NCBI GenBank assembly: GCA_964626905.1 | Contig: CAZVHA010000005.1 | Span: forward strand, 51,345-115,344 | Direction: 5' to 3' | Origin: an uncultured bacterium | GTDB taxonomy: Bacteria; Chlamydiota; Chlamydiia; Chlamydiales; SM23-39 | Length of the DNA stretch: 64,000 nucleotides | Part shown: one piece after another, positions 33,811 to 44,677 of the stretch | How positions within the stretch are numbered: the first letter of the stretch is position 1 | How the letters are laid out: each line of letters opens with the position of its first letter | The notes under the pieces: model-generated | Database searches by the model: none | Seen by the model: only the letters and a program-made list of their open reading frames with translations | Told to the model about the DNA's origin: nothing | Made by a program: the position numbers and the translations under genes

Positions 33811-34896
33811 ATGAAATTAACAGTTATATTCTTGTTGTCTCTTTCGTTATTTTGTTTTGCAGACACCGATGTAGAAGATAAATTGAGGGCCTGTTTTTTT
33901 AGTCCGGAAATTACAACATTGGATATTGCCGACTGGAATCAGCCAACTGTGGATGATTTATGGAAATTGCAAAATTTCATGAAAGAAAGACATATTCAAA
34001 ACATTAAACGTCATTCAGAAGATCCCACTTTTCAAGCACCATTTCCCAGCGATTATTTGAACAAAGAATTCTTTGGGTGGATTCTATATCGAAGTGGGAG
34101 GATTTCTTTTATCAAAGATGAGACAGTAACCCCAGTCAGACAAATTGTTTATTTCAATAATGATCCAAATAAAAAGGACAAATGTGTCATTTGCTATGCG
34201 GGGCATCAATCAAAGTGGAATGAGAGAGATTACATTCGCGGTATCCATTTGATGATTAAAGCATTAGAACAGACACATTTTGATGGCCACTTTATCTATT
34301 ACATAGGTGGATGGCCTAGCCTTAAGAAGGGTAGGCTGAAATACATTGACGTTCCTTTTGCCTTTAAACCATTTCTTTTCGAGGAAGCTAGGGATTTAGG
34401 TTATAGAAGGGTATTATGGCTGGATGCCTGTTGTTTACCGGTCAAAAGCTTAAAGCCCATATTCAAGCATATGCGAAAAAAGGGGCTCTGTTTTTATAGT
34501 TATGGTTCTTTGCAACAGTGGAGAGAATTTGATTTAGGATATGCCTACATGATGCCTTTCTTGAATCTTTCCAATGAGGGGCGCTACGAGCAAATTTCCT
34601 CGCAAGTCATTGGTTTAGATCTGTCTAATCCGAAGGCGCTTTGCCTTTTGAATGAATGGATCAAAGCCGCAGAAAGAAGAATCCCGTTCTTGCAAAGCGA
34701 TGAGCCTCCTTTTATGTATTTAATAAATCATCTGCAACTTCAAGACTGCCGCATGCCCAATTTCTATTACATAGAAACCCCCTGCAATACGGGAGATTTC
34801 AACTATAGACGAGCAAATAAAAATGCAATTATTTACCATCAATATGATTTTATCAATCCTCAATATCGAGTTCCAAAAAATCTTTTTAGCAATTAG
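33811..34896 (+). CDS. Hypothetical secreted protein, 361 aa
   Basis: Signal peptide MKLTVIFLLSLSLFCFA. No secure domain assignment. AT-richer than the core genes by eye. Confidence 0.55.
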   Translation: MKLTVIFLLSLSLFCFADTDVEDKLRACFFSPEITTLDIADWNQPTVDDLWKLQNFMKERHIQNIKRHSEDPTFQAPFPSDYLNKEFFGWILYRSGRISFIKDETVTPVRQIVYFNNDPNKKDKCVICYAGHQSKWNERDYIRGIHLMIKALEQTHFDGHFIYYIGGWPSLKKGRLKYIDVPFAFKPFLFEEARDLGYRRVLWLDACCLPVKSLKPIFKHMRKKGLCFYSYGSLQQWREFDLGYAYMMPFLNLSNEGRYEQISSQVIGLDLSNPKALCLLNEWIKAAERRIPFLQSDEPPFMYLINHLQLQDCRMPNFYYIETPCNTGDFNYRRANKNAIIYHQYDFINPQYRVPKNLFSN

Positions 34897-35879
34897 CGCA
34901 TTTGTTTTCTTAACTTTTCGAGCTGCTGATCATAAATTTTTTTGAATTCCTCTGAAATTTCAGCGATACGTGAATCGTCAACGGGTACAGACCTCTCCTT
35001 AAACAGAGTCACGAGAGTAGAACGCATAACATTACCTAAGCCATTTGCCCCAATTGCCCTTAGACAAGTCTCTAAAAATAGCATTTGAACCTTATAACCT
35101 TCTTGGTAGGATTGTCTCTTCTCACAGGCTTCTATAGATTCCCCTAATTCCACAATCTCTTTTAGAACATCTTTCCCTGCTAACTTCTGGAATTCGTTTT
35201 GAGTGCACTGATCTACGAGTTGGAACTGATAGGGATCCCCTCCTCTCAGTTCCGGAATTTCCTCTAGCCTTGAGGCCACTAATCCACCAAGCATTCCTGA
35301 AAACCCCCAAATCAATTCTTTTTGCTTCTCTGTTAAGGGAGCGTTTTCATTTCTTTTCTCTTCTGTCGCCTCCCTCTTCAAGGGGCCCTCTTTCAAAGTA
35401 AGCTTTGCTGTCAAATCATTCTCTTCAGAGTTGACAGTCAGACAATAGCTTTGCCCCTCTTCAAGAGTCTCAGGAAACTCGATCTCCATTTCTAAATCAT
35501 ATCTTTCAAAAAAGATTTGATGGATCACCTTCCCATTCGCATCCAAGGTTGCAGGCCCTTTTTTAGAACTTTGTTCAACTATGCCTGCTTTAAGGGTCAA
35601 GTTTTTGATCTGCTCGATCGTAAGCTGTAGTGCCTCTGAGCTACGCTCCTTATTCAAAAGAGGATGCACCGGATGTATGGATCGAAGTGTGAAAGGCAAA
35701 AACTGTTTTTGATGGGACGACCCCTTTTCGGGTATGCTTACAGATACCTGATCTTTTGTATTTTTGAAAATGAGATCTACTACTCCAACATCCCTTTGCA
35801 TATTATGAGAAGAGCAAGGCCCCTCCCATTTGAAAAAAAGAACAATTGGAGAAGAAGTCGGTACTAACTGCGATGCCAT
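34893..35879 (-). CDS. Hypothetical protein, 328 aa
   Basis: Long ATG-initiated ORF with no competing frame. No signal peptide and no recognised motif. Confidence 0.5.
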   Translation of the reverse strand: MASQLVPTSSPIVLFFKWEGPCSSHNMQRDVGVVDLIFKNTKDQVSVSIPEKGSSHQKQFLPFTLRSIHPVHPLLNKERSSEALQLTIEQIKNLTLKAGIVEQSSKKGPATLDANGKVIHQIFFERYDLEMEIEFPETLEEGQSYCLTVNSEENDLTAKLTLKEGPLKREATEEKRNENAPLTEKQKELIWGFSGMLGGLVASRLEEIPELRGGDPYQFQLVDQCTQNEFQKLAGKDVLKEIVELGESIEACEKRQSYQEGYKVQMLFLETCLRAIGANGLGNVMRSTLVTLFKERSVPVDDSRIAEISEEFKKIYDQQLEKLRKQMR

Positions 35880-36060: not shown

Positions 36061-37242
36061 TTATTCGAAAGTATTCAAAGGTGGTACGTTTGGATCCGAT
36101 GTATCGTTTTTCCTTTCTTCCATCACAACACCATTTTGCTCTTGCCGAGGAAAATCTTCGATCCTTGGATACATAGGCATCAGGAGACGAATGTACTTTT
36201 CATATAATGCGACAATTTTGTCCACTTTCTGCTGATAATGAGCAATGAGGCCCTTTGCCCCTTCTCTACTAGACGACATCTCCATTAATTCAGAATGAAG
36301 TTGTTCTGGGTGATCTAAATTTGAAGGATCTGAACACTCGATGATATAATTCTTTGCGTTTGCTTCAGCTACAGATTCAAGTTTTTTTATTTCAAATTCT
36401 CTGGCAAAAAGATATATGTGATACGCCTCTTCATCATCTTGGAATTCAATTTTTGAAGAATAAAAAGCCCTCATAACTTTTTCGACAATCGTTTCTGGAA
36501 TATTTAAATGCAGTTTTGGGATCAAATTCTCATTTTCTTGATTGGCATCTGGGAAATCGGGGTTTTGTGCTTCAACTAGTGATCCGAGCAATTTGGGAGC
36601 AATCTGTTCGAGTATGCATTTGTCAACAAGATCTCCTTGCTGAGCTCTAGCAACGTTATCTCCTTGCTCCATTCCTTCTCGTATTTCAACTTGCTGCCCG
36701 AATACTTCGACCAACCGGCGCTGATATTCCCCTCTTGACGGTTTGAGCGATGATGCATCTATGGGATCAAGCTTCGGGGGTTCTTTTTGCTGGCGCTCTA
36801 ACAGTGCTTGATATTCTTCACAAGAAGCTTTATGTGCTAATTGATATGCGTCATAAATACCAGCATAATCTCCTGTCATACTAGATATCATTTCAAGATA
36901 AACTGTTTTTGCTTTCATTTGGGACAACAAAACATCGCCCCTCGTTCGGTTCAAATCATTATATTCTTCTTTAAAGTTATAGCTGATGGTTTTACATATG
37001 AAAAAAACCTTGTTTTCGAGCGCCCCAGAAGAATCTTTTGGCCCATTACTTCCTTTAAAATAAAGATCTAGATTGACTGTAAACTCAATGTAATTTTCTC
37101 GATCGGATGGTCGCCATGAGTATACACGTTGATTACTTTCGCCGGGCCTTTGATAGTCAGATTGGGTCCCAGAAGAAAACTGGCAATATGGGATATTGAG
37201 TTTAATAATCCCGAATTTTGACGGATGATAATTTATCGACAT
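36061..37242 (-). CDS. Hypothetical protein with a possible BTB/POZ-like segment
   Basis: The ATG at 37242 (MSINYHPS) has a weak GGTG RBS. The alternative ATG at 37290 has none. Residues encoded by about 36340-36636 (CILEQIAPKLLGSLVE...LHLNIPETIVEKVMRAFYSSKIEFQDDEEAYHIYLFAREFEIKKLESVAEANAKNYI) resemble the BTB fold pattern. Confidence 0.5.
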   Translation of the reverse strand: MSINYHPSKFGIIKLNIPYCQFSSGTQSDYQRPGESNQRVYSWRPSDRENYIEFTVNLDLYFKGSNGPKDSSGALENKVFFICKTISYNFKEEYNDLNRTRGDVLLSQMKAKTVYLEMISSMTGDYAGIYDAYQLAHKASCEEYQALLERQQKEPPKLDPIDASSLKPSRGEYQRRLVEVFGQQVEIREGMEQGDNVARAQQGDLVDKCILEQIAPKLLGSLVEAQNPDFPDANQENENLIPKLHLNIPETIVEKVMRAFYSSKIEFQDDEEAYHIYLFAREFEIKKLESVAEANAKNYIIECSDPSNLDHPEQLHSELMEMSSSREGAKGLIAHYQQKVDKIVALYEKYIRLLMPMYPRIEDFPRQEQNGVVMEERKNDTSDPNVPPLNTFE

Positions 37243-37458
37243 ATTACACCTATTAAAAATTAAAACACAATTATATACAAAATTTAACATTAAGGCAAAC
37301 AGTAATAAATCAAAAACCTATCCGATATCCCTCCTTCACGAGCAGGGCATCAATAGCCGCACGAAGGAAAAACGCAAGTAATTGATAGTTATATATTTAC
37401 ATTCTTTATAACAAAAAAAACAAAAGGGAAGGCTATGCAAAGATCTGCCGCTCGTGAC

Positions 37459-38874
37459 TCAAGAAACTGGGATGAGGTGATCGAGGGCTGAAAGGCGATT
37501 TACCCGAAAGTGCAACATTGGACGCCCCTGGGCAATCAGGGCTGGGGCAAGGGCGATCGTCGCCAACGTTTCTCTTGATTTAGGGGTATTGAGCGGTCTT
37601 GTTTTCGCATAGAGAAGAGCGAGGTTTGCGGCCCCCCGATCCACGCAGCTGCGGCACGAAACATTGCAAGTCGCGGGTGTTTTTTCCCGAATGAACGTTT
37701 CGATGATGCCGACATAGACGAGCTCGATGAAGCGATGTCTTTGCCATTTTTCAAGTGTGGGGGCTGAGGCAAAATAAGTTTGGTGTACCTGTTCGATCAC
37801 ATTCATTGCGATATTTCTTGTATCGCCCCGGTCCCACGCGATTGGAAAGTGAAATGCTTCAAGATCGCTAAACATCCGGTCAATGAACGTCTCTTTAAAT
37901 TGTTCTGCGTCGTTCATGGCGGAAAAAGAGTTTGACTGGTGATAAAAATCACAATCATGCGAGAGTGTGAGTAAATCTAGGACATCTCCCCTTTTTCTCT
38001 CTAAATCTTCGAGGGCTTCAATTCTTTTCTTTTCCGATCCATGACGCATCATGAGATTTACGTAGAAATGTCGTTTTCCGACTCTTTTCGCATGGTCTAA
38101 AAATCCTTCAAATTCTTCGACAATTTTTGCTTTTTCAAGAGATCCAAAAAAGGATCTCTTCTCATCGCGTGTCACTGCCGGGGTACGGATGATTTGCGTG
38201 TTTCCAATCTTGAATAAACGGCTCGGCGTATCGCCTAAATAACGGGGATCATAGGGCCGGTAATCTTGAAACACTTCTCCTTGAAATTGGGATTTGTTTA
38301 CCAGTCTTCCATGTAAGCTTCGAAGAAATTGAGAGTTCACTTTTATCGATAGGTTGCGCCTCTCATTTTCAGTCATATTTCCTTGGATCCATTGGCTCAT
38401 CGCTCCCAGCAAGTTTGGCCCCATATAAATCCAGTTGCAAAACCGTTCGGCAAATTGCGCGCTCTTGGGATCAAGGTCCTTCTTGCGATTCAATAGATCT
38501 CGATGCCGCACTACAACTCCTTTGTGAAAGAGCTCTCGATTGGAAACAGGTTGTAAAATCCACCGAACTAGATCAAGTGAGCCCAATTCTGGATTTTTCC
38601 CCACTTCCGACGAGATGAATCGATGGAGTTTTTCTCGATACCGATCAAAGAGCTGTGTCGAATAAAAATAGGGGAAATCAGCAAGGGGAACTTTTCGAAG
38701 AGAGCGATATGCCCATCTGATTCCGTCCATCATGAACAGGATCGGAGTGATGATCAAAGCAGCTATTGCAGCCGTTGCAATCAAAGAGCGCCGCGCGATT
38801 CCGTGGGATTGTTTCCACGAATTTTCCAAGCGAAGAAAGGTATTTGCCGTAATTGGAAAAGAACAATGGCTCAT
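37459..38874 (-). CDS. Membrane-anchored hypothetical protein with the shared N-terminal module and a Sac-like C-x2-C-V-D-R string
   Basis: The ATG at 38874 lies 4 nt after the upstream stop. The track TTG is at 38895. The N-terminal module is HGIARRSLIATAAIAALIITPILFMMDGIRWAYRS. CRSCVDR is encoded at nt 37636-37656. Confidence 0.55.
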   Translation of the reverse strand: MSHCSFPITANTFLRLENSWKQSHGIARRSLIATAAIAALIITPILFMMDGIRWAYRSLRKVPLADFPYFYSTQLFDRYREKLHRFISSEVGKNPELGSLDLVRWILQPVSNRELFHKGVVVRHRDLLNRKKDLDPKSAQFAERFCNWIYMGPNLLGAMSQWIQGNMTENERRNLSIKVNSQFLRSLHGRLVNKSQFQGEVFQDYRPYDPRYLGDTPSRLFKIGNTQIIRTPAVTRDEKRSFFGSLEKAKIVEEFEGFLDHAKRVGKRHFYVNLMMRHGSEKKRIEALEDLERKRGDVLDLLTLSHDCDFYHQSNSFSAMNDAEQFKETFIDRMFSDLEAFHFPIAWDRGDTRNIAMNVIEQVHQTYFASAPTLEKWQRHRFIELVYVGIIETFIREKTPATCNVSCRSCVDRGAANLALLYAKTRPLNTPKSRETLATIALAPALIAQGRPMLHFRVNRLSALDHLIPVS

Positions 38875-38878
38875 AATA

Positions 38879-40063
38879 TTAGTAATCCCAGTCAATAAAT
38901 ATTGGCAATTTTAAACCCCTAATGTTTCCAATTGTCTCGCTAAACAAAGTTTTTGCTTTGGCTTTATCCGTTTCCACTTGTTCTGGAAGATCTGCAGCGT
39001 ATTCGACCACATCTTTGGAGCAAAACTTTTTGAGGAGATACTGTTCGCTAAATTTCTCCTGGAATCTCTTTTTTTGCGGATAGATATTTTCCGGATAGAC
39101 CTTGTCATCTTCTCCGACAACTAGTTTCGTTGAGCTCGCAAGAGTTCCATTGTGGCTCTCTTCGAGCCAACGCATCCCCGGGTTGTTTTCTTTACTCTCA
39201 AAATGACGAAGCGGAAGACTTGGATCTCCCAAATAGCCTTGCGCCGCATCAGTCATCGAGATCAGGTAGGTAAAATCAATAGCTACTTTGGGGAAAAGGG
39301 CTCGGATCTCTTTGATCATGCTCCCCTCAAAACCAATATCGATAAAAGTGCACTGATCTCCCTCTTGAATCTGGAGATTTTCTCGAACATATCGATCAAA
39401 AACGGATTGATTTTCTGTTGATGCGACCGCGTGCCGCAGCAATTTTCTAGACATGTGGGCCAAAACAAGGCGATCATCTCCTACGAGGTTGGGATATTTT
39501 TGCGCATATTCAGGTTTTGCCATCAACTTTATGGCGAGCTGATAGTAGGGGATTGCGTCTCGGGCCAAAAAAACAAGCTTTTTATTGTCTCGATTCGCGG
39601 TTTCCAAAAGATGGTCTACAAAATGGCGAATGACTGGACCATAAATTTTTTGGGAGCGGGCAGAATAGGCGCAGATTTTATCAATTAACTTTTCCTTTTG
39701 CCCTAAAGACAGCGATCGAAAATCCCTTTGATGCTTGTCGAAATACTTTCGGATCTGGGCTTCCGTTCGATTCACCTCTTCAGGTGCAAGCCGTTTCCGA
39801 TCTTCGTAAATGGCTCGAATAACGAGTTGCTTTGATTGATACCAACGGATTGGGTAGCTGATCAGGCTATAGAAAAAAGCAAACACTAAGGAAACGGCCA
39901 AGGCTACATCTAAAAGTCGATTTTTGACCCCATTGGCCAAGAAAAAGAGCCCCTTTCGCGAGAGTGAATCAGACTTCAATACCTCGATCTGAGTCTTTCT
40001 TCGCAAACCCTGAAATTGAAACCAACAAGTTTTAACAGGTTGAAATAAAATGTTAGCAGCCAC
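38879..40063 (-). CDS. Membrane-anchored hypothetical protein, tandem paralog 1 (394 aa)
   Basis: GTG start. The N-terminal module is NGVKNRLLDVALAVSLVFAFFYSLISYPIRWYQS. Blocks conserved with the neighbouring gene: KLVFLARD, DIGFEGS, GMRWLEESHNGTLAS, LFSETI. Confidence 0.6.
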   Translation of the reverse strand: MAANILFQPVKTCWFQFQGLRRKTQIEVLKSDSLSRKGLFFLANGVKNRLLDVALAVSLVFAFFYSLISYPIRWYQSKQLVIRAIYEDRKRLAPEEVNRTEAQIRKYFDKHQRDFRSLSLGQKEKLIDKICAYSARSQKIYGPVIRHFVDHLLETANRDNKKLVFLARDAIPYYQLAIKLMAKPEYAQKYPNLVGDDRLVLAHMSRKLLRHAVASTENQSVFDRYVRENLQIQEGDQCTFIDIGFEGSMIKEIRALFPKVAIDFTYLISMTDAAQGYLGDPSLPLRHFESKENNPGMRWLEESHNGTLASSTKLVVGEDDKVYPENIYPQKKRFQEKFSEQYLLKKFCSKDVVEYAADLPEQVETDKAKAKTLFSETIGNIRGLKLPIFIDWDY

Positions 40064-40128: not shown

Positions 40129-41346
40129 CTATTGATCCCAGCCGACAGGAATCAGAAGTTCGCCATTTTTGATTTGTCGAATGGTTTCACTAAAAATTTT
40201 CTTTGTCTCTGCCCTTTCCTTCTCAGTCTGCAAGGGGAGATCGGCAGCGCTGTGGACCACTGCTTTTAGGCAAAATTTTCTGATTAGGTAAGGGAGGGAG
40301 AATTTAGCCTCGGTGCGAACTTTCCCCGGATATTTTTCGCTTTGCACCCCTTTTGAATCATGAACGACATAAACCCTGTTTTTTTCGCCATCTAGAGCAA
40401 GTTCGGTGCCACTCGCAAGAGTGCCGTGATGTGTCTCTTCCATCCAGCGCATCCCCAGGTTCTGCTTTTCAGATTCGAAATAAGGGAGAGGCTGATCTGG
40501 TGTTGCCAAAAAGCCGTTCGCTTTATCTGAAGTGGCAACTAAAAATTCGAATACAATATCGTTTTCTGGAAGAAGTTTTCGAATGGGGTCGACCATCCTC
40601 CCTGAGAAACCAATATCGGCAAATATACAGTTTTCTAAGGGTTTAACCCCCAGATTTTCAGCAAAATACTGCTGGAACAGTTCTGGCTTTGAAAGAGATT
40701 TAAAAACCAATTCCCTTGAAAAATACCCGTAGACCAGTGCCCCTTCCTTTGCAAGGAATGGATATTTCTTTTGATATTCTTCTTGTTTCATGAGCTTTTG
40801 AGCTACCTCGTAGAAAGGGAGCCCGTCTCGAGCCATAAAGACGAGTTTGCGCTTTCCCCTATCGGCTGCTTCGAGGAGGTGGTCTACGAACTGCCTTGCA
40901 ACGGGGGCGAAAACGGCCTGGCTACGCGCGCATTGGGCAGTGACTTGGCGTATGATCTTTCCCTTTTGTCTACCTGATTGTCGGTCAAAAAAAGTTTTGT
41001 GTTTGTTAAAATAACGGAAGAGCTCCTCAGAGCCAATCACTGGTTTTTTAATTCGGGCTAAATCGAGCTCAATGCTTCTTCTTTCAAGGAGCTCGGCCTT
41101 GTAAAAGCGAAACGGAAAGGTCAAAAGGCAGTACAACCCCACAAAGAGAGTCGCAATGACAAAGGCGAGCTCGACAAGTCTATTTTTTATTCCGTTGGCT
41201 AGGAAAAAACCGATTTTTTTAATCGATGAGCAGGGGGATGAAGCGGGCTCAAGAGGCCTATCATAAACGCTGTGCAGCCGATTCCAAACCGTCATCAGTG
41301 GCTGAATCATTAAAATATTTTCTGGGGCCATTTTTATCTTCATCAT
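40129..41346 (-). CDS. Membrane-anchored hypothetical protein, tandem paralog 2 (405 aa)
   Basis: The N-terminal module is NGIKNRLVELAFVIATLFVGLYCLLTFPFRFYKA. Conserved blocks: KLVFMARD, DIGFSGR, GMRWMEETHHGTLAS, IFSETI. Alignment with paralog 1 suggests the ATG at 41331 (MAPENIL) as an alternative start. Confidence 0.6.
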   Translation of the reverse strand: MMKIKMAPENILMIQPLMTVWNRLHSVYDRPLEPASSPCSSIKKIGFFLANGIKNRLVELAFVIATLFVGLYCLLTFPFRFYKAELLERRSIELDLARIKKPVIGSEELFRYFNKHKTFFDRQSGRQKGKIIRQVTAQCARSQAVFAPVARQFVDHLLEAADRGKRKLVFMARDGLPFYEVAQKLMKQEEYQKKYPFLAKEGALVYGYFSRELVFKSLSKPELFQQYFAENLGVKPLENCIFADIGFSGRMVDPIRKLLPENDIVFEFLVATSDKANGFLATPDQPLPYFESEKQNLGMRWMEETHHGTLASGTELALDGEKNRVYVVHDSKGVQSEKYPGKVRTEAKFSLPYLIRKFCLKAVVHSAADLPLQTEKERAETKKIFSETIRQIKNGELLIPVGWDQ

Positions 41347-41400
41347 AATTGCCGATCACACAAATTAACCGCACCAATTTTACTTAATTTTTATTAAAAA

Positions 41401-41419
41401 AGCAATCATTGCGATTGCT
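41401..41419. promoter_or_regulatory. Dyad AGCAATC-attgc-GATTGCT flanked by A-runs in a divergent promoter region
   Basis: Perfect 7-bp arms with a 5-nt spacer, read directly. It lies in the 126-nt AT-rich gap between divergent genes 40129-41346 (-) and 41473-42546 (+). Confidence 0.4.
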
Positions 41420-41472
41420 AAAAATTATTTTCATTTGTTTTTAGATGCTCTTTAATATACAATATTTAGCAA

Positions 41473-42546
41473 ATGGTTAGGGCTGTGGGACAAAAGGGGG
41501 ATTTTTCTATTCCCCCGGAAACAATACAATGCAATGGATTGCGGGCTCGAGTGGGCTCTGTTGTTCGCGCCTGTTTTGAATGGCTCCGAGCTGTTTTCCT
41601 TTTTCCCTTTCGCTATTTGGGGTCCAAAACGTGGTCTATACCAGGGGTCATCCTTCGGGCGCCGTGGCTCTGTGTGAAGAGAGTTTTTACAAAATTCTCT
41701 TTACGGCAAGAATTATTTGGAGCAAAGTACCAATACTTTTTTGAAAAGAGTTTGGGGCCTGAGGAACTAAGACCGTATCTTCCTTACGCCTGTGCTGTCG
41801 CGTTTGTGGCGTCGGTCAATCCAGAGTATCGCCTTTCTGGGTGGAATCACGTTTGTTCGCTCGATCTGAACCTTCCGGAGGGGTGTTCCCTAAATCAGGA
41901 AGGGTATGTCGTTGATTCTATGGCGGGGTTTAAGTCTGTTATATTGGAAAAAGGGGATGAATTGATCATCGCATTTAGGGCCATGAAGCATTGTTTAAAG
42001 AGGGATGAAAGCGATCCTAAAAAGCCAGTGAGACTTCCCAGCATGGATCCGGATGCAAAAAATCTCGTGAGTCAACTTGCAGGATTAAAGCCAGCTCTTT
42101 TTGAACGGGCAAGTTCCTATGTAAAGCATATCGGCAATCTCCCCCAATCCCGAGGTAAAAAGATTATAGTCGCCGGACAATGTCATGGAGGTACTATTGC
42201 TTCTTATGCCGGGATTGCAAATGGGATCCCTGCCATCTGTTTCAACACTTGCCCTCTAGGTGTAGGGCTTCAGAAAGATTTGGGCAGAGAGCGGCTTGAT
42301 CGGGCGAGCGACTTAGCGACGCATATTTGTATTGAAGGAGACTTCCTAACAGACCATTCTTATCAGGCGCCTTTAGATGTCCTTGCTAACGGTCTTGGAT
42401 TGCGCACTCCTGGCAATTTTGGAAAGAAATTTCGCATCCCATCAGCCTATTCTAAGGAGCACGATAAGCACGTCTTCTCGTTGGGGAGCGTGCTGAAACA
42501 TCTCGGATACCCGATTCGCACTCTCCCAAAAGAGATCGCGCTATAG
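41473..42546 (+). CDS. Class-3-lipase/DUF2974-like alpha/beta hydrolase with Cys in the nucleophile elbow
   Basis: 357 aa. ELIIAFRA (compare the lipase_3 AFRGT block). The nucleophile elbow reads GQCHGG (nt 42175-42192) instead of GHSxGG. Candidate Asp is in IEGDFLTD and candidate His in EHDKHVF. The N-terminus NGLRARV...FLFPFRYLGS matches the module of the neighbouring genes. Confidence 0.6.
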   Translation: MVRAVGQKGDFSIPPETIQCNGLRARVGSVVRACFEWLRAVFLFPFRYLGSKTWSIPGVILRAPWLCVKRVFTKFSLRQELFGAKYQYFFEKSLGPEELRPYLPYACAVAFVASVNPEYRLSGWNHVCSLDLNLPEGCSLNQEGYVVDSMAGFKSVILEKGDELIIAFRAMKHCLKRDESDPKKPVRLPSMDPDAKNLVSQLAGLKPALFERASSYVKHIGNLPQSRGKKIIVAGQCHGGTIASYAGIANGIPAICFNTCPLGVGLQKDLGRERLDRASDLATHICIEGDFLTDHSYQAPLDVLANGLGLRTPGNFGKKFRIPSAYSKEHDKHVFSLGSVLKHLGYPIRTLPKEIAL

Positions 42547-42560
42547 CAGACCATCGCATT

Positions 42561-43589
42561 TCATCTGACGCTCTTGGCTCGATCCCTCAACTCTTGTAAA
42601 AGGGCCTTGACTCTTTGAGATTCTCCTTTCTTGCTGATGAGAATTGCCTCATCGGTTTCCACGATGAGAAGATCGTCCAATCCGATCGTGGAGACGATTC
42701 TTTTGCCGCCGATGATGAGGCTGTTCGTGGTGTCAATGGCTAAAACATCGCCAATTTTGACATTTCGATCTTCATCTTTTTGAAGAACATCGTAGACGCT
42801 ATCCCAGCAGCCGACATCAGACCAGGTGATGGCGAGAGGGCAGACGAGGAGATCTTTCGATTTTTCCATGATGCAATAATCGATGGATAGCTCGGGCAGT
42901 TCACCAAATCGACTCATCACCTCTTTGAGGTCCAGCTGAAATAGGGCTCCAAAGGAGGGGGCATGTAACTGTAGCTGCTCCCAAAAACTTTGAGGCGTGA
43001 ACAAAAACATCCCCGAATTCCAAAAAAAATGGGGATTTCTCAGGTATTTTTCGGCCAGTTTTAAATTCGGCTTTTCGACAAATCGCTTTACTTCGAAAGT
43101 GAGCGGATCACATTTTTTCCCCATTTCGATATATCCGTACCCGGTCTCTGGCTTCGTAGGGCGTATTCCGAAAGTGATGATTTTGGCCCTAGGCTGCAAT
43201 TGCTCTAAAGCGTGAAGAAAAATCTCCTCGGGCTCGATTAAATGATCTGAGGGGACGACCAAAATGGATTCTGAAGGGCTGCACCCCATCTCATTTTGCA
43301 GTGTTTTGACAGCTAAAGCGATGGCAGCTGCCGTATTTTTCCTCATCGGTTCTATAAGAATGGGGCAATCGATCCCAATTTTACTCAGCTGCTCCGTCAC
43401 AAGGGAATGGTGGAGCGCGTTGGTAGCGACAATCACCTCATCGATAAATGGCGCCTCTTTGAGCCGCATGACCGTCTTTTGGAGCAAAGAGGCCCCCATG
43501 CCAAAGTTGAGAAATTGTTTCGGGAAATTCTCCTTTGAAAGGGGCCAAAGGCGCTGCCCTCCACCGCCCGCTAGTACAATTGCCTTCAT
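42561..43589 (-). CDS. Mannose-1-phosphate guanylyltransferase (nucleotidyltransferase domain only)
   Basis: MKAIVLAGGGGQRLWPLSKENFPKQFL from the ATG at 43589, which overlaps the upstream stop (ATGA). GYGYIE block. No C-terminal cupin/PMI domain. Confidence 0.85.
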   Translation of the reverse strand: MKAIVLAGGGGQRLWPLSKENFPKQFLNFGMGASLLQKTVMRLKEAPFIDEVIVATNALHHSLVTEQLSKIGIDCPILIEPMRKNTAAAIALAVKTLQNEMGCSPSESILVVPSDHLIEPEEIFLHALEQLQPRAKIITFGIRPTKPETGYGYIEMGKKCDPLTFEVKRFVEKPNLKLAEKYLRNPHFFWNSGMFLFTPQSFWEQLQLHAPSFGALFQLDLKEVMSRFGELPELSIDYCIMEKSKDLLVCPLAITWSDVGCWDSVYDVLQKDEDRNVKIGDVLAIDTTNSLIIGGKRIVSTIGLDDLLIVETDEAILISKKGESQRVKALLQELRDRAKSVR

Positions 43590-44677
43590 CGTTTTGCCTC
43601 GACGAATGTGGAAAACTGTCTGTTGAATCGCTCGAGCGAAAAAAGCTCTGCCCTTTTGCGACATTTTTCTGGATCGAATTCCATTTTTTCAAACTCTTGA
43701 ATAGCGCCAATGAGAGAAGAGATACTCTGCTCCTCAAAAAAATGGCCCGTTTCCCCCTCGATCACGCTCTCTTTTACTCCCCCTTTGCCAAAAGCGATGA
43801 CCGGTGTTCCCGACGCCATCGCTTCGACAGGGGCAATACCAAAATCTTCAAGTGCAGCAAAGACGAACCCTTTTGCCCTTTGTAAAAGCCCTTTCAACAC
43901 GTGGTCCTCTTGATATCCGAGTAGTTCCACATTTTTGCCAGCGATTGCCCTCACTTTTTTCCACTCGGGACCATCGCCGACAACCACAAGTTTTTTGTCC
44001 CCCATTTTCGAAAATGCCTCCACAATTAAATCGATCTTTTTATAGGGGACAAACCTCGATGCGGTGAGATAAAAGCTCTCTTTTTTCTCCTTCTTTTCAA
44101 AAAGATCCACATCGACTGGGGGATAAATCACTTCGGAACTTCGCCCATAAAATTTCTGAATCCGTTTCGCAACAAATTTCGAATTGGCGATAAAATGATC
44201 GACTCTTTGCACCGAATGGAGATCCCATCCTCGCAAATAGTGCAAAAAAAACTTTGCAAAAAAGCCTTTGATTCCCCGATCGAGCTTGGCCTCTCTTAAA
44301 TAGGCGTGCATCATGTCCCAAGCATAGCGCATCGGCGTGTGGCAATAGCAAATATGGAGCTGTTCAGCACCTGGGATCACTCCCTTGGCAACACAGTGCG
44401 ACGAAGAGAGGATCAGATCGTATCCGCTCAAATCAAAATGCTCGATTGCTAGAGGAAAAAGGGGCAAATACCTCTGATACTTCGCCTCTACCTTTGGAAA
44501 TTTTTGCAAGAAAGAAGAAAAGATCTCAAGACCTTCAAAATAGGTTCCCTGAAGTTTTTTGGCATTTTGAATGAGGGTGAAAATGGGAGAAGGGTAGAGC
44601 TGGTGGATCGCTTGAAGCACCTTTTCGCCGCCTCCAACACTAGAGAGAAGCCAGTCGTGAACGATGGCGCTACCCAT
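43586..44677 (-). CDS. Glycosyltransferase family 4 (GT-B)
   Basis: MGSAIVHDWLLSSVGGGEKVL start at the internal ATG 44677. The C-terminal block EDFGIAPVEAMASGTPVIA is a family signature. The upstream part of the track ORF overlaps the preceding gene. Confidence 0.8.
   Translation of the reverse strand: MGSAIVHDWLLSSVGGGEKVLQAIHQLYPSPIFTLIQNAKKLQGTYFEGLEIFSSFLQKFPKVEAKYQRYLPLFPLAIEHFDLSGYDLILSSSHCVAKGVIPGAEQLHICYCHTPMRYAWDMMHAYLREAKLDRGIKGFFAKFFLHYLRGWDLHSVQRVDHFIANSKFVAKRIQKFYGRSSEVIYPPVDVDLFEKKEKKESFYLTASRFVPYKKIDLIVEAFSKMGDKKLVVVGDGPEWKKVRAIAGKNVELLGYQEDHVLKGLLQRAKGFVFAALEDFGIAPVEAMASGTPVIAFGKGGVKESVIEGETGHFFEEQSISSLIGAIQEFEKMEFDPEKCRKRAELFSLERFNRQFSTFVEAKR

Follow-up and report, generated by a model that had tools for sequence, protein, structure and literature searches.

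What does a lipase-like protein do that carries a cysteine where the canonical nucleophile elbow has a serine? This question is raised by a gene in a 64,000-nucleotide stretch of DNA from an uncultured chlamydial bacterium (Chlamydiales lineage SM23-39; assembly GCA_964626905.1, contig CAZVHA010000005.1, positions 51,345 to 115,344 of the forward strand), the whole of which is called the window here. The gene encodes a protein of 357 residues, referred to below as the hydrolase, and a preliminary description made from the letters alone had read it as a relative of class 3 lipases with Cys in place of the nucleophilic Ser. Our analysis assigns the protein to a large family, termed family C, that is restricted to chlamydiae, and suggests a thiol-dependent, phospholipase A1 (PLA1)-like acyl hydrolase or transferase with lipid as its most probable target, a reading to which we give a probability of roughly 0.6. 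A role in glycan metabolism ranks second.

Fold, predicted active site and Cys/Ser interchange

The translated open reading frame (ORF) contains the elbow G-Q-C-H-G-G at nucleotides 42175-42192, with TGT as the codon of its Cys, as well as every other string on which the preliminary description had built its argument (ELIIAFRA, residues 163-170; IIVA, 231-234; FNTCPLG, 257-263; IEGDFLTD, 287-294; EHDKHVF, 329-335). Cys237 is neither a chance event nor a sequencing error nor a product of gene decay, because the identical 357-residue protein is called on six contigs of public assemblies, GQCHGG recurs in an orthologue of 94% identity, and the ratio of nonsynonymous to synonymous substitution rates (dN/dS) between the two genes is 0.18. 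Conservation was counted over 172 relatives that cover the domain core, and in these the context of the elbow is a conserved G-x-[CS]-x-G-[GA]. The gene and its parts are as follows.

41473..42546, + strand: coding sequence of the 357-residue alpha/beta hydrolase of family C with Cys as predicted nucleophile, ATG start (ORF list and sequence)
41473..41532, + strand: variable N-terminus of low confidence, residues 1-20; predicted local distance difference test score (pLDDT) below 50 at residues 1-19 in both structural models, unaligned in the family alignment
41539..41718, + strand: N-terminal helical part of the domain, residues 23-82, with helices 23-43, 45-48, 56-72 and 77-82
41605..41646, + strand: most conserved family motif, residues 45-58, PFRYLGSKTWSIPG (family alignments)
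41959..41982, + strand: ELIIAFRA, residues 163-170, core strand ending in an F-G/R-A turn, a strand in both models
42175..42192, + strand: nucleophile elbow G235-Q-C237-H-G-G240, between strand 230-236 and helix 238-249
42181-42183, + strand: codon TGT of Cys237 (sequence)
42241..42273, + strand: FNTCPLGVGLQ, residues 257-267, conserved loop after the next strand, with N258, G263 and Q267 nearly invariant
42340..42342, + strand: D290, predicted catalytic acid, after strand 282-287, aligned with Glu393 of Tle6
42469..42471, + strand: H333, predicted catalytic histidine, after the last core strand 318-322, invariant

Two AlphaFold2 runs, one with a 15-sequence alignment (pLDDT 76.6) and one with a 42-sequence alignment (pLDDT 87.7, predicted template modelling score 0.86), gave the canonical order of an alpha/beta hydrolase: strand 163-170, strand 230-236 with Cys237 and helix 238-249 behind it, strand 254-257 followed by N258, strand 282-287 followed by D290, and strand 318-322 followed by H333. 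Foldseek searches of the PDB with either model returned alpha/beta hydrolases exclusively. The best match of both was 9cys_A, the type VI secretion system (T6SS) phospholipase Tle6 of Enterobacter cloacae (E 9e-9 and 1.4e-8, probability 1.00), which was the single strong match and spanned 275 of 277 target columns; the plant PLA1 7x0d (CaPLA1) came next with a probability of 0.99, and acyl-protein thioesterases, carbohydrate esterase family 7 (CE7) esterases and dienelactone hydrolases followed at E values of about 1e-3. The preliminary description was to stand or fall with the alpha/beta-hydrolase fold and with the place of Cys237 at the elbow, and on both counts the models bear it out, the residue sitting in a strand-turn-helix in each of them.

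The best sequence match in the PDB was again a Tle6 (7ubz_B), weakly so with the single sequence (E 0.54) and with the family profile (E 0.0046). This alignment matches GQCHGG with GHSLGG, F-N with F-N and IEGDFLT with VEGELLT, and by residue count it pairs C237 with Ser341 and D290 with Glu393. The triad Ser341/Glu393/His448 of Tle6 has been established experimentally, together with a PLA1/A2 activity (PMC11470151). The two downstream residues proposed earlier as candidate acid and base, the Asp in IEGDFLTD and the His in EHDKHVF, correspond to D290 and H333 and are supported by the family: position 290 is Asp in 166 relatives, Glu in five and Cys in one, and H333 is present in all 172, as is G317. 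G204, G235, N258 and Q267 are each kept in 171 of the 172 and G263 in 170. The F-G/R-A turn in which the ELIIAFRA strand ends is the presumed position of the oxyanion hole, for which class 3 lipases have the turn F-R-G-T/S; of the 172 relatives, 152 retain F168 and 155 have Gly at position 169.

A survey of Ser and Cys among homologues, as the preliminary description had proposed, showed that about 69% have Cys and about 30% Ser. In numbers, position 237 is Cys in 119 relatives, Ser in 51, Asn in two and nothing else. A column limited to two possible nucleophiles, beside an invariant His and a nearly invariant Asp, reads as the signature of a working triad. The two proteins with Asn, P0066 (GQNLGG) and P0074 (GQNFGG), retain the Asp and the His and may be pseudoenzymes or may follow a different chemistry. 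They would be in keeping with a non-catalytic domain in general, that is a scaffold, a targeting module or a pseudoenzyme, as would the attachment of the domain to other enzymes (see below) and an N-terminal motif whose conservation exceeds that of most of the catalytic core. Such a domain is nevertheless highly improbable, given that H333 is invariant, that Asp or Glu stands at 290 in 171 and Cys or Ser at 237 in 170 of the 172 relatives, that the gene is under purifying selection and that fused copies keep the full triad.

Cys and Ser have been swapped many times by a single-base change between TGY and TCN. Fitch parsimony on a neighbour-joining tree, with Cys at the root, requires at least about 26 switches, compared with an average of 45 and never fewer than 38 when the Cys and Ser states are shuffled; the tree being rough, this count is indicative only. 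At the family C loci for which DNA was at hand, the Ser codons are TCN in eight of eight cases and the Cys codons are TGY, so that each switch amounts to one transversion.

The size of the family became apparent with the depth of the search. A word-indexed search found 14 relatives and a profile search 42, and when 1.84 billion representatives were searched exhaustively with HMMER, the number rose to 352 at E ≤ 1e-3, of which 117 reached E ≤ 1e-30, so that family C comprises at least 352 clusters at 50% identity. Genome contigs searched with the hydrolase protein alone gave no match, whereas an alignment-based search did. Every source names the proteins 'hypothetical protein', and all genome records that bear a taxon name are metagenome-assembled genomes (MAGs) of Chlamydiota, including Parachlamydiaceae and Protochlamydia. 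A literature search on chlamydial lipase-like Cys hydrolases returned no description of family C. The precomputed Pfam matches include weak or faint ones to PF26363, 'Phospholipase-like', for P0006, P0011, P0013, P0172 and the gene at locus L105, which are mostly of the Ser type, and record none for the hydrolase; no paper mentioning this Pfam model turned up in a literature search.

The most conserved stretch of family C is not the elbow but residues 45-58, P-F-R-Y-L-G-S-K-T-W-S-I-P-G in the hydrolase and P-x-R-Y-x-G-S-K-T-W-S-x-P-G as the consensus of the family. Where this region is present, there is no variation at G50, K52 and S55, and R47, Y48, W54, P57 and G58 are kept in at least 90% of the proteins. 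The motif sits between two helices, and residues 23-82 have a pLDDT of 84-91 in the 42-sequence model. The N-terminal part had been described earlier as a module shared with neighbouring proteins, a view that we reject. A tblastn search with residues 1-95 against the window gave a best E of 0.3 (to family B, one of two orphan families encoded next to the hydrolase gene), helices of transmembrane grade occur in the neighbouring proteins A, B1 and B2 (19-residue Kyte-Doolittle scores of 2.45, 2.41 and 2.29) and not in the hydrolase, whose N-terminal part scores 1.19 at best and forms no classical transmembrane helix, and fusion proteins keep the part within the domain. In the latter, residues 1-90 stay with a hydrolase domain that forms the C-terminus of proteins of 1,667-2,000 residues, and the motif travels along to positions of about 1,300-1,550. 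To judge from these sequences, the motif belongs to the hydrolase domain itself. It could act as a lid or as a site for substrate or partner binding, and it is the main unexplained feature of the family.

Resemblance to lipases and to other Cys-elbow enzymes

Tle6 is the best match of the hydrolase both in structure and in PDB sequence, with a common fold and a common order of nucleophile, acid and His, and with the elements G-x-Nuc-x-G-G, F-N and the acid segment E-G-D/E-x-L-T in register. Tle6 effectors include the Tle of Enterobacter cloacae (PDB 7ubz/9cys) and Slp of Serratia. The differences are considerable: Ser341/Glu393/His448 stands against Cys237/Asp290/His333 at about 15% identity, and the N-terminal family motif lies outside the Tle6 sequence alignments. 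Furthermore, Tle6 depends on the T6SS for delivery, has an ankyrin-repeat immunity protein as its partner and becomes active through an advanced glycation end product (AGE) crosslink (PMC11470151), whereas domain scans of the hydrolase neighbourhood found no ankyrin or T6SS domains; the genes of the orphan families A and B, a ManC-like gene and GT4 glycosyltransferase genes are located there instead.

With class 3 lipases (PF01764) the hydrolase shares the strand leading to the F-G/R-A turn, the elbow, the Asp after a later strand and the His. The lipase_3/DUF2974 layout recognised in the preliminary description holds as a remote resemblance and fails as a family assignment, as the hydrolase has no Pfam match to either family. 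For Lipase_3 there was none even at E ≤ 10 (gathering score 22 bits), and Cys, not Ser, occupies the elbow. Weak Lipase_3 or Mbeg1-like matches occur in some relatives only; those to Lipase_3 were seen in six of 15 relatives (best E 1.7e-5), and the distant P0137 reached 24.3 bits. The N-terminal helices and the motif of family C lie outside every Lipase_3 match obtained. The hydrolase is therefore likened to Tle6 and to class 3 lipases, yet it lacks what defines their members, namely the hidden Markov model (HMM) match, the Ser, the Glu and the T6SS/ankyrin context, and family C is best called a Chlamydiota-specific family of lipase-like alpha/beta hydrolases, mainly with Cys, with an N-terminal motif of its own and with unusual partners.

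A Cys on the elbow, with His and Asp completing the triad, has precedents in two other kinds of alpha/beta hydrolase, dienelactone hydrolase and the polyhydroxyalkanoate (PHA) synthase PhaC. The latter has a G-x-C-x-G box with a Cys-His-Asp triad (PMC5509742). This likeness in chemistry does not by itself make the hydrolase a member of either family, but it shows that the chemistry proposed below is feasible. It also raises the question of whether the hydrolase might be a metabolic enzyme of one of these two classical Cys-elbow families. Its G-x-C-x-G-G box is that of PhaC, and ten of 15 relatives have weak, elbow-centred matches to the dienelactone hydrolase family (DLH, PF01738). A few relatives are marginal, with 25.8 bits (P0027) and 21.0 bits (P0032) against a gathering score of 21 bits, again over about 50 residues only. 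The hydrolase itself reaches 11.9 bits over residues 194-245 only, that is below the cut-off, and its sub-threshold hints among Pfam and NCBIfam models, DLH (E 0.17) and BPSS1187 (E 0.2), are both centred on the elbow. In Foldseek, DLH ranks far below Tle6 (E about 4e-3), no PHA-synthase Pfam match was found in the hydrolase or in 15 relatives, the N-terminal motif lies outside every DLH match, and the gene context lends no support to dienelactones or to hydroxyacyl-CoA polymerisation as substrates. With the similarity confined to some 50 residues around the elbow, we regard such a metabolic enzyme as very unlikely.

A Cys-His-Asp triad would also suit thioester and amide chemistry, and the source is an intracellular bacterium. 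A thiol amidase, such as a protease, a deubiquitinase-like enzyme or a deacylase of lipidated proteins, might accordingly be considered for amide or thioester bonds of host proteins, and the weak Foldseek matches to the acyl-protein thioesterases APT1 and APT2 (probability 0.94-0.99, E about 1e-3) point in the same direction. These matches span about 150-180 columns only, the top homologues are lipases, and roughly 30% of the family uses Ser in the same context, even within one type of gene cassette; an amidase is hence improbable, though less so than a DLH- or PhaC-type enzyme. The preliminary description had named host lipids or lipidated proteins as possible targets, and an action on either is at this stage an inference.

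A gene cassette and fusions to glycogen enzymes

In the window, the hydrolase gene is divergent from three genes of the orphan families A and B, with which family C forms an A-B-C cassette.

41347..41472, strand not applicable: AT-rich divergent intergenic region of 126 bp between the family B and family C genes (sequence)
40129..41346, - strand: orphan protein B1 of family B, 405 residues, conserved neighbour, 41% identical to its paralogue B2
38879..40063, - strand: B2, paralogue of family B, 394 residues, 41% identical to B1 (ORF list)
37459..38895, - strand: orphan protein of family A, 478 residues, with a C-x5-R motif, conserved neighbour (alignment)

The cassette statistics come from nine contigs. 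The gene of family C is divergent from B-A in the window and at loci L004, L016 and L104; in L010 the order is B-A-C, co-directional and with overlapping stop and start codons, and L105 has B-A-B-C plus a second copy of C. The nucleophile of the cassette-linked C protein is Cys in the window, L004, L016 and L104 and Ser in L010 and L105. It is also Ser in P0175, whose link to a cassette, with the family A protein P0184, is presumed only.

The 3.1-Mb chlamydial contig L022 has B-A followed by an alpha/beta hydrolase of a different family (L022:8819-10018, + strand). This protein matches Abhydrolase_1 with 30.9 bits and DUF818/CHLPS weakly, has the elbow GHCMGG and gives no match to the family C HMM; an hhalign comparison of family C with it returned a probability of 8%. 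Its best PDB match is the alpha/beta-hydrolase (ABH) domain of MARTX (E 1.4e-4), with GYSMGG over GHCMGG. The MARTX ABH is a PLA1 specific for phosphatidylinositol 3-phosphate with a Ser-Asp-His triad (PMC4640098). As a lipase-like effector domain (PDB 6imp), it resembles the hydrolase in kind, and a relative with a Cys elbow fills the cassette position in L022; direct similarity is lacking, as the family C profile matched 6imp_A at E 1.9. Because the slot in L022 holds a MARTX-ABH-like hydrolase with a Cys elbow, a lipase-like hydrolase seems to be a requirement of the cassette, and a thiol nucleophile has arisen at this position independently in two separate families of alpha/beta hydrolases.

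Family A is marked by S-C-R-S-[CT]-[VI]-D-R-G-A, which contains the C-x5-R motif, is found in 15 of 15 relatives and reads SCRSCVDRGA here (residues 413-422). We take this motif to resemble the P-loop of Sac-/IpgD-type phosphoinositide phosphatases and of glucan phosphatases, which is a lead and not a test. The gene overlaps the start of B2 by 17 nt. The tandem paralogues B1 and B2 share the motifs LVFMARDGLPxYE, DIGFxGSM and RWLEESHHGTLAS. A promoter scan of the 126-bp interval found no sigma-70-like match. We also considered a reading of these genes as a defence system and rejected it, as PADLOC gave no match for A, B, C or the other orphans.

Some observations on the surroundings may be added. 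Between 32001 and 42000, the G+C content of the window is 0.40-0.44, compared with mostly 0.45-0.53 elsewhere in the window. The block contains a series of genes without a family match, namely 33811-34896, 34893-35879, 36061-37290, A, B2, B1 and that of the hydrolase. Its neighbours are topA and the gene of a polytopic membrane protein at one end and the ManC-like and GT4 glycosyltransferase genes at the other. The topoisomerase I gene of the window is up to 86% identical to its counterparts in Parachlamydiales/Chlamydiota MAGs, which marks the source as an uncultured chlamydia. Only 14 nt lie between the hydrolase gene and the ManC-like gene that converges on it (42561-43664, - strand), and no terminator-like hairpin was detected there. 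In L104 (L104:8696-9784) and in the JGI contig 3300047160, further genes of about 360-406 codons follow B-A and have no counterpart in the window; there may be more variable members of the cassette.

Outside the cassette, Pfam scans of long relatives identified fusions of the hydrolase domain to enzymes of glycogen synthesis. GlgA-GlgB-hydrolase fusions are represented by P0026, P0027, P0044, P0051 and P0154 and occur also in L001, L008 and L015; their GlgA part consists of Glyco_transf_5 and GT1, their GlgB part of CBM48, alpha-amylase and Alpha-amylase_C. Hydrolase-GlgA fusions are P0029, P0105 and L003:7926-11120 (1,064 residues). Fusions to phospholipase D (PLD), with the hydrolase N-terminal, are P0108 and P0110. 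The fused copies retain a complete predicted triad, with either Cys or Ser next to Asp and His. In L017:8001-16947, two tandem free-standing hydrolase paralogues lie directly upstream of a GlgA-GlgB gene on one strand, and this gene stops exactly at the Alpha-amylase_C domain and carries no hydrolase domain. A TcdA/TcdB-like (Gly_transf_sug) glycosyltransferase gene follows it on the same strand, and a comparable glycosyltransferase gene and a LicD gene are found near the homologue in L016. The GlgA-GlgB fusion of Waddliaceae and Criblamydiaceae has been published as unique and two-domain, with a seemingly inactive branching domain; the text of that publication that was searched speaks of two domains only and does not mention a lipase-like one (PMC7935935).

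These GlgA/GlgB fusions, together with neighbourhoods rich in glycosyltransferase genes, favour a glycan-linked role. The hydrolase could then be an esterase or O-acyltransferase directed at glycogen, another alpha-glucan or an envelope glycan and coupled to glycogen synthase and branching enzyme. The domain is C-terminal in the GlgA-GlgB fusions and N-terminal in the GlgA fusions, the two copies in L017 directly precede a GlgA-GlgB gene, glycosyltransferase genes flank the hydrolase in the window, L016, L017 and L105, and there are weak Foldseek matches to CE7 acetyl-xylan esterases. On the other hand, the CE7 matches have a root-mean-square deviation of about 15 Å, the nearest relatives in structure and sequence are phospholipases and lipases, a search of the window found neither glgA nor glgB, the domain is fused to PLD as well, and the cassette slot can hold a MARTX-ABH-like hydrolase that resembles a PLA1. 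We know of no report of acylated chlamydial glycogen, which counts against this role too. We consider it the second choice, unlikely as it is when set beside an action on lipid.

Proposed chemistry and its meaning for chlamydial biology

An action on membrane glycerophospholipid, possibly phosphoinositide, is favoured because of the homology to Tle6 and PLA1, the weak PF26363 and Lipase_3 matches in the family, the PLD fusions and the MARTX-ABH-like substitute in the cassette. Several findings weigh against it. The TM-scores (template modelling scores) to Tle6 are modest, at 0.42-0.55, and direct scans of the hydrolase protein gave no Pfam or NCBIfam match above threshold. Gene fusions link the domain most strongly to glycogen synthase and branching enzyme and not to lipid enzymes, and the many glycosyltransferase neighbours point to a glycan-related role. 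As to the partners, families A and B had no Pfam, NCBIfam or significant PDB match in sequence and profile searches, and the phosphatase-like reading of A, a lead, is drawn from a seven-residue motif only.

In the thiol-dependent lipid reaction that we favour, the pair His333-Asp290 would deprotonate Cys237, and the resulting thiolate would attack an acyl ester or thioester to form an acyl-thioester enzyme intermediate. Backbone amides that follow Cys237 and the ELIIAFRA strand would stabilise the oxyanion. The intermediate could be resolved by water, which would make the protein a hydrolase, or by an acceptor hydroxyl or amine, which would make it an acyltransferase. The two outcomes are equally plausible, since an acyl group is passed on to an acceptor more readily from a thioester intermediate than from an oxyester, and PhaC sets a precedent for acyl-transfer chemistry on the same elbow (PMC5509742). 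The hydrolase, presumably located at a membrane, would work together with its membrane-anchored partners, the phosphatase-like A with its C-x5-R motif and the orphan B.

A more far-reaching and rather doubtful proposal, which we rate somewhat below the glycan-directed enzyme and above the thiol amidase, is that family C might be the catalytic arm of an unrecognised, membrane-associated three-protein module of chlamydiae. This would consist of a transmembrane-anchored, C-x5-R phosphatase-like A, a transmembrane-anchored orphan B and a thiol lipase or acyltransferase C, with a slot that is open to unrelated Cys-elbow hydrolases and with the same domain joined to glycogen synthase and branching enzyme in other lineages. 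If this is true, membrane lipid, possibly phosphoinositide, and glycogen metabolism would be connected by an acyl transfer that is as yet unknown, such as the lipid anchoring or acylation of a glucan or its synthase at the inclusion membrane or the bacterial membrane.

Chlamydiota live as obligate intracellular bacteria, and most of the proteins by which they interact with their hosts are uncharacterised. To this phylum family C adds a large enzyme family that no source has named and whose named genome records are all Chlamydiota MAGs. Few alpha/beta hydrolases of the lipase-like kind prefer Cys to Ser. The repeated single-base swaps between the two, even within one cassette, represent a natural experiment on how Ser and Cys replace each other in catalytic triads. 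They also bear on an idea attributed to Brenner, in which Cys is said to be an intermediate between the two codon classes of Ser. The A-B-C cassette offers a testable joint context for three orphan families. Finally, many metagenomic versions of GlgA-GlgB carry the hydrolase as a third domain, which may bear on why this fusion exists and on why its branching domain seemed inactive.

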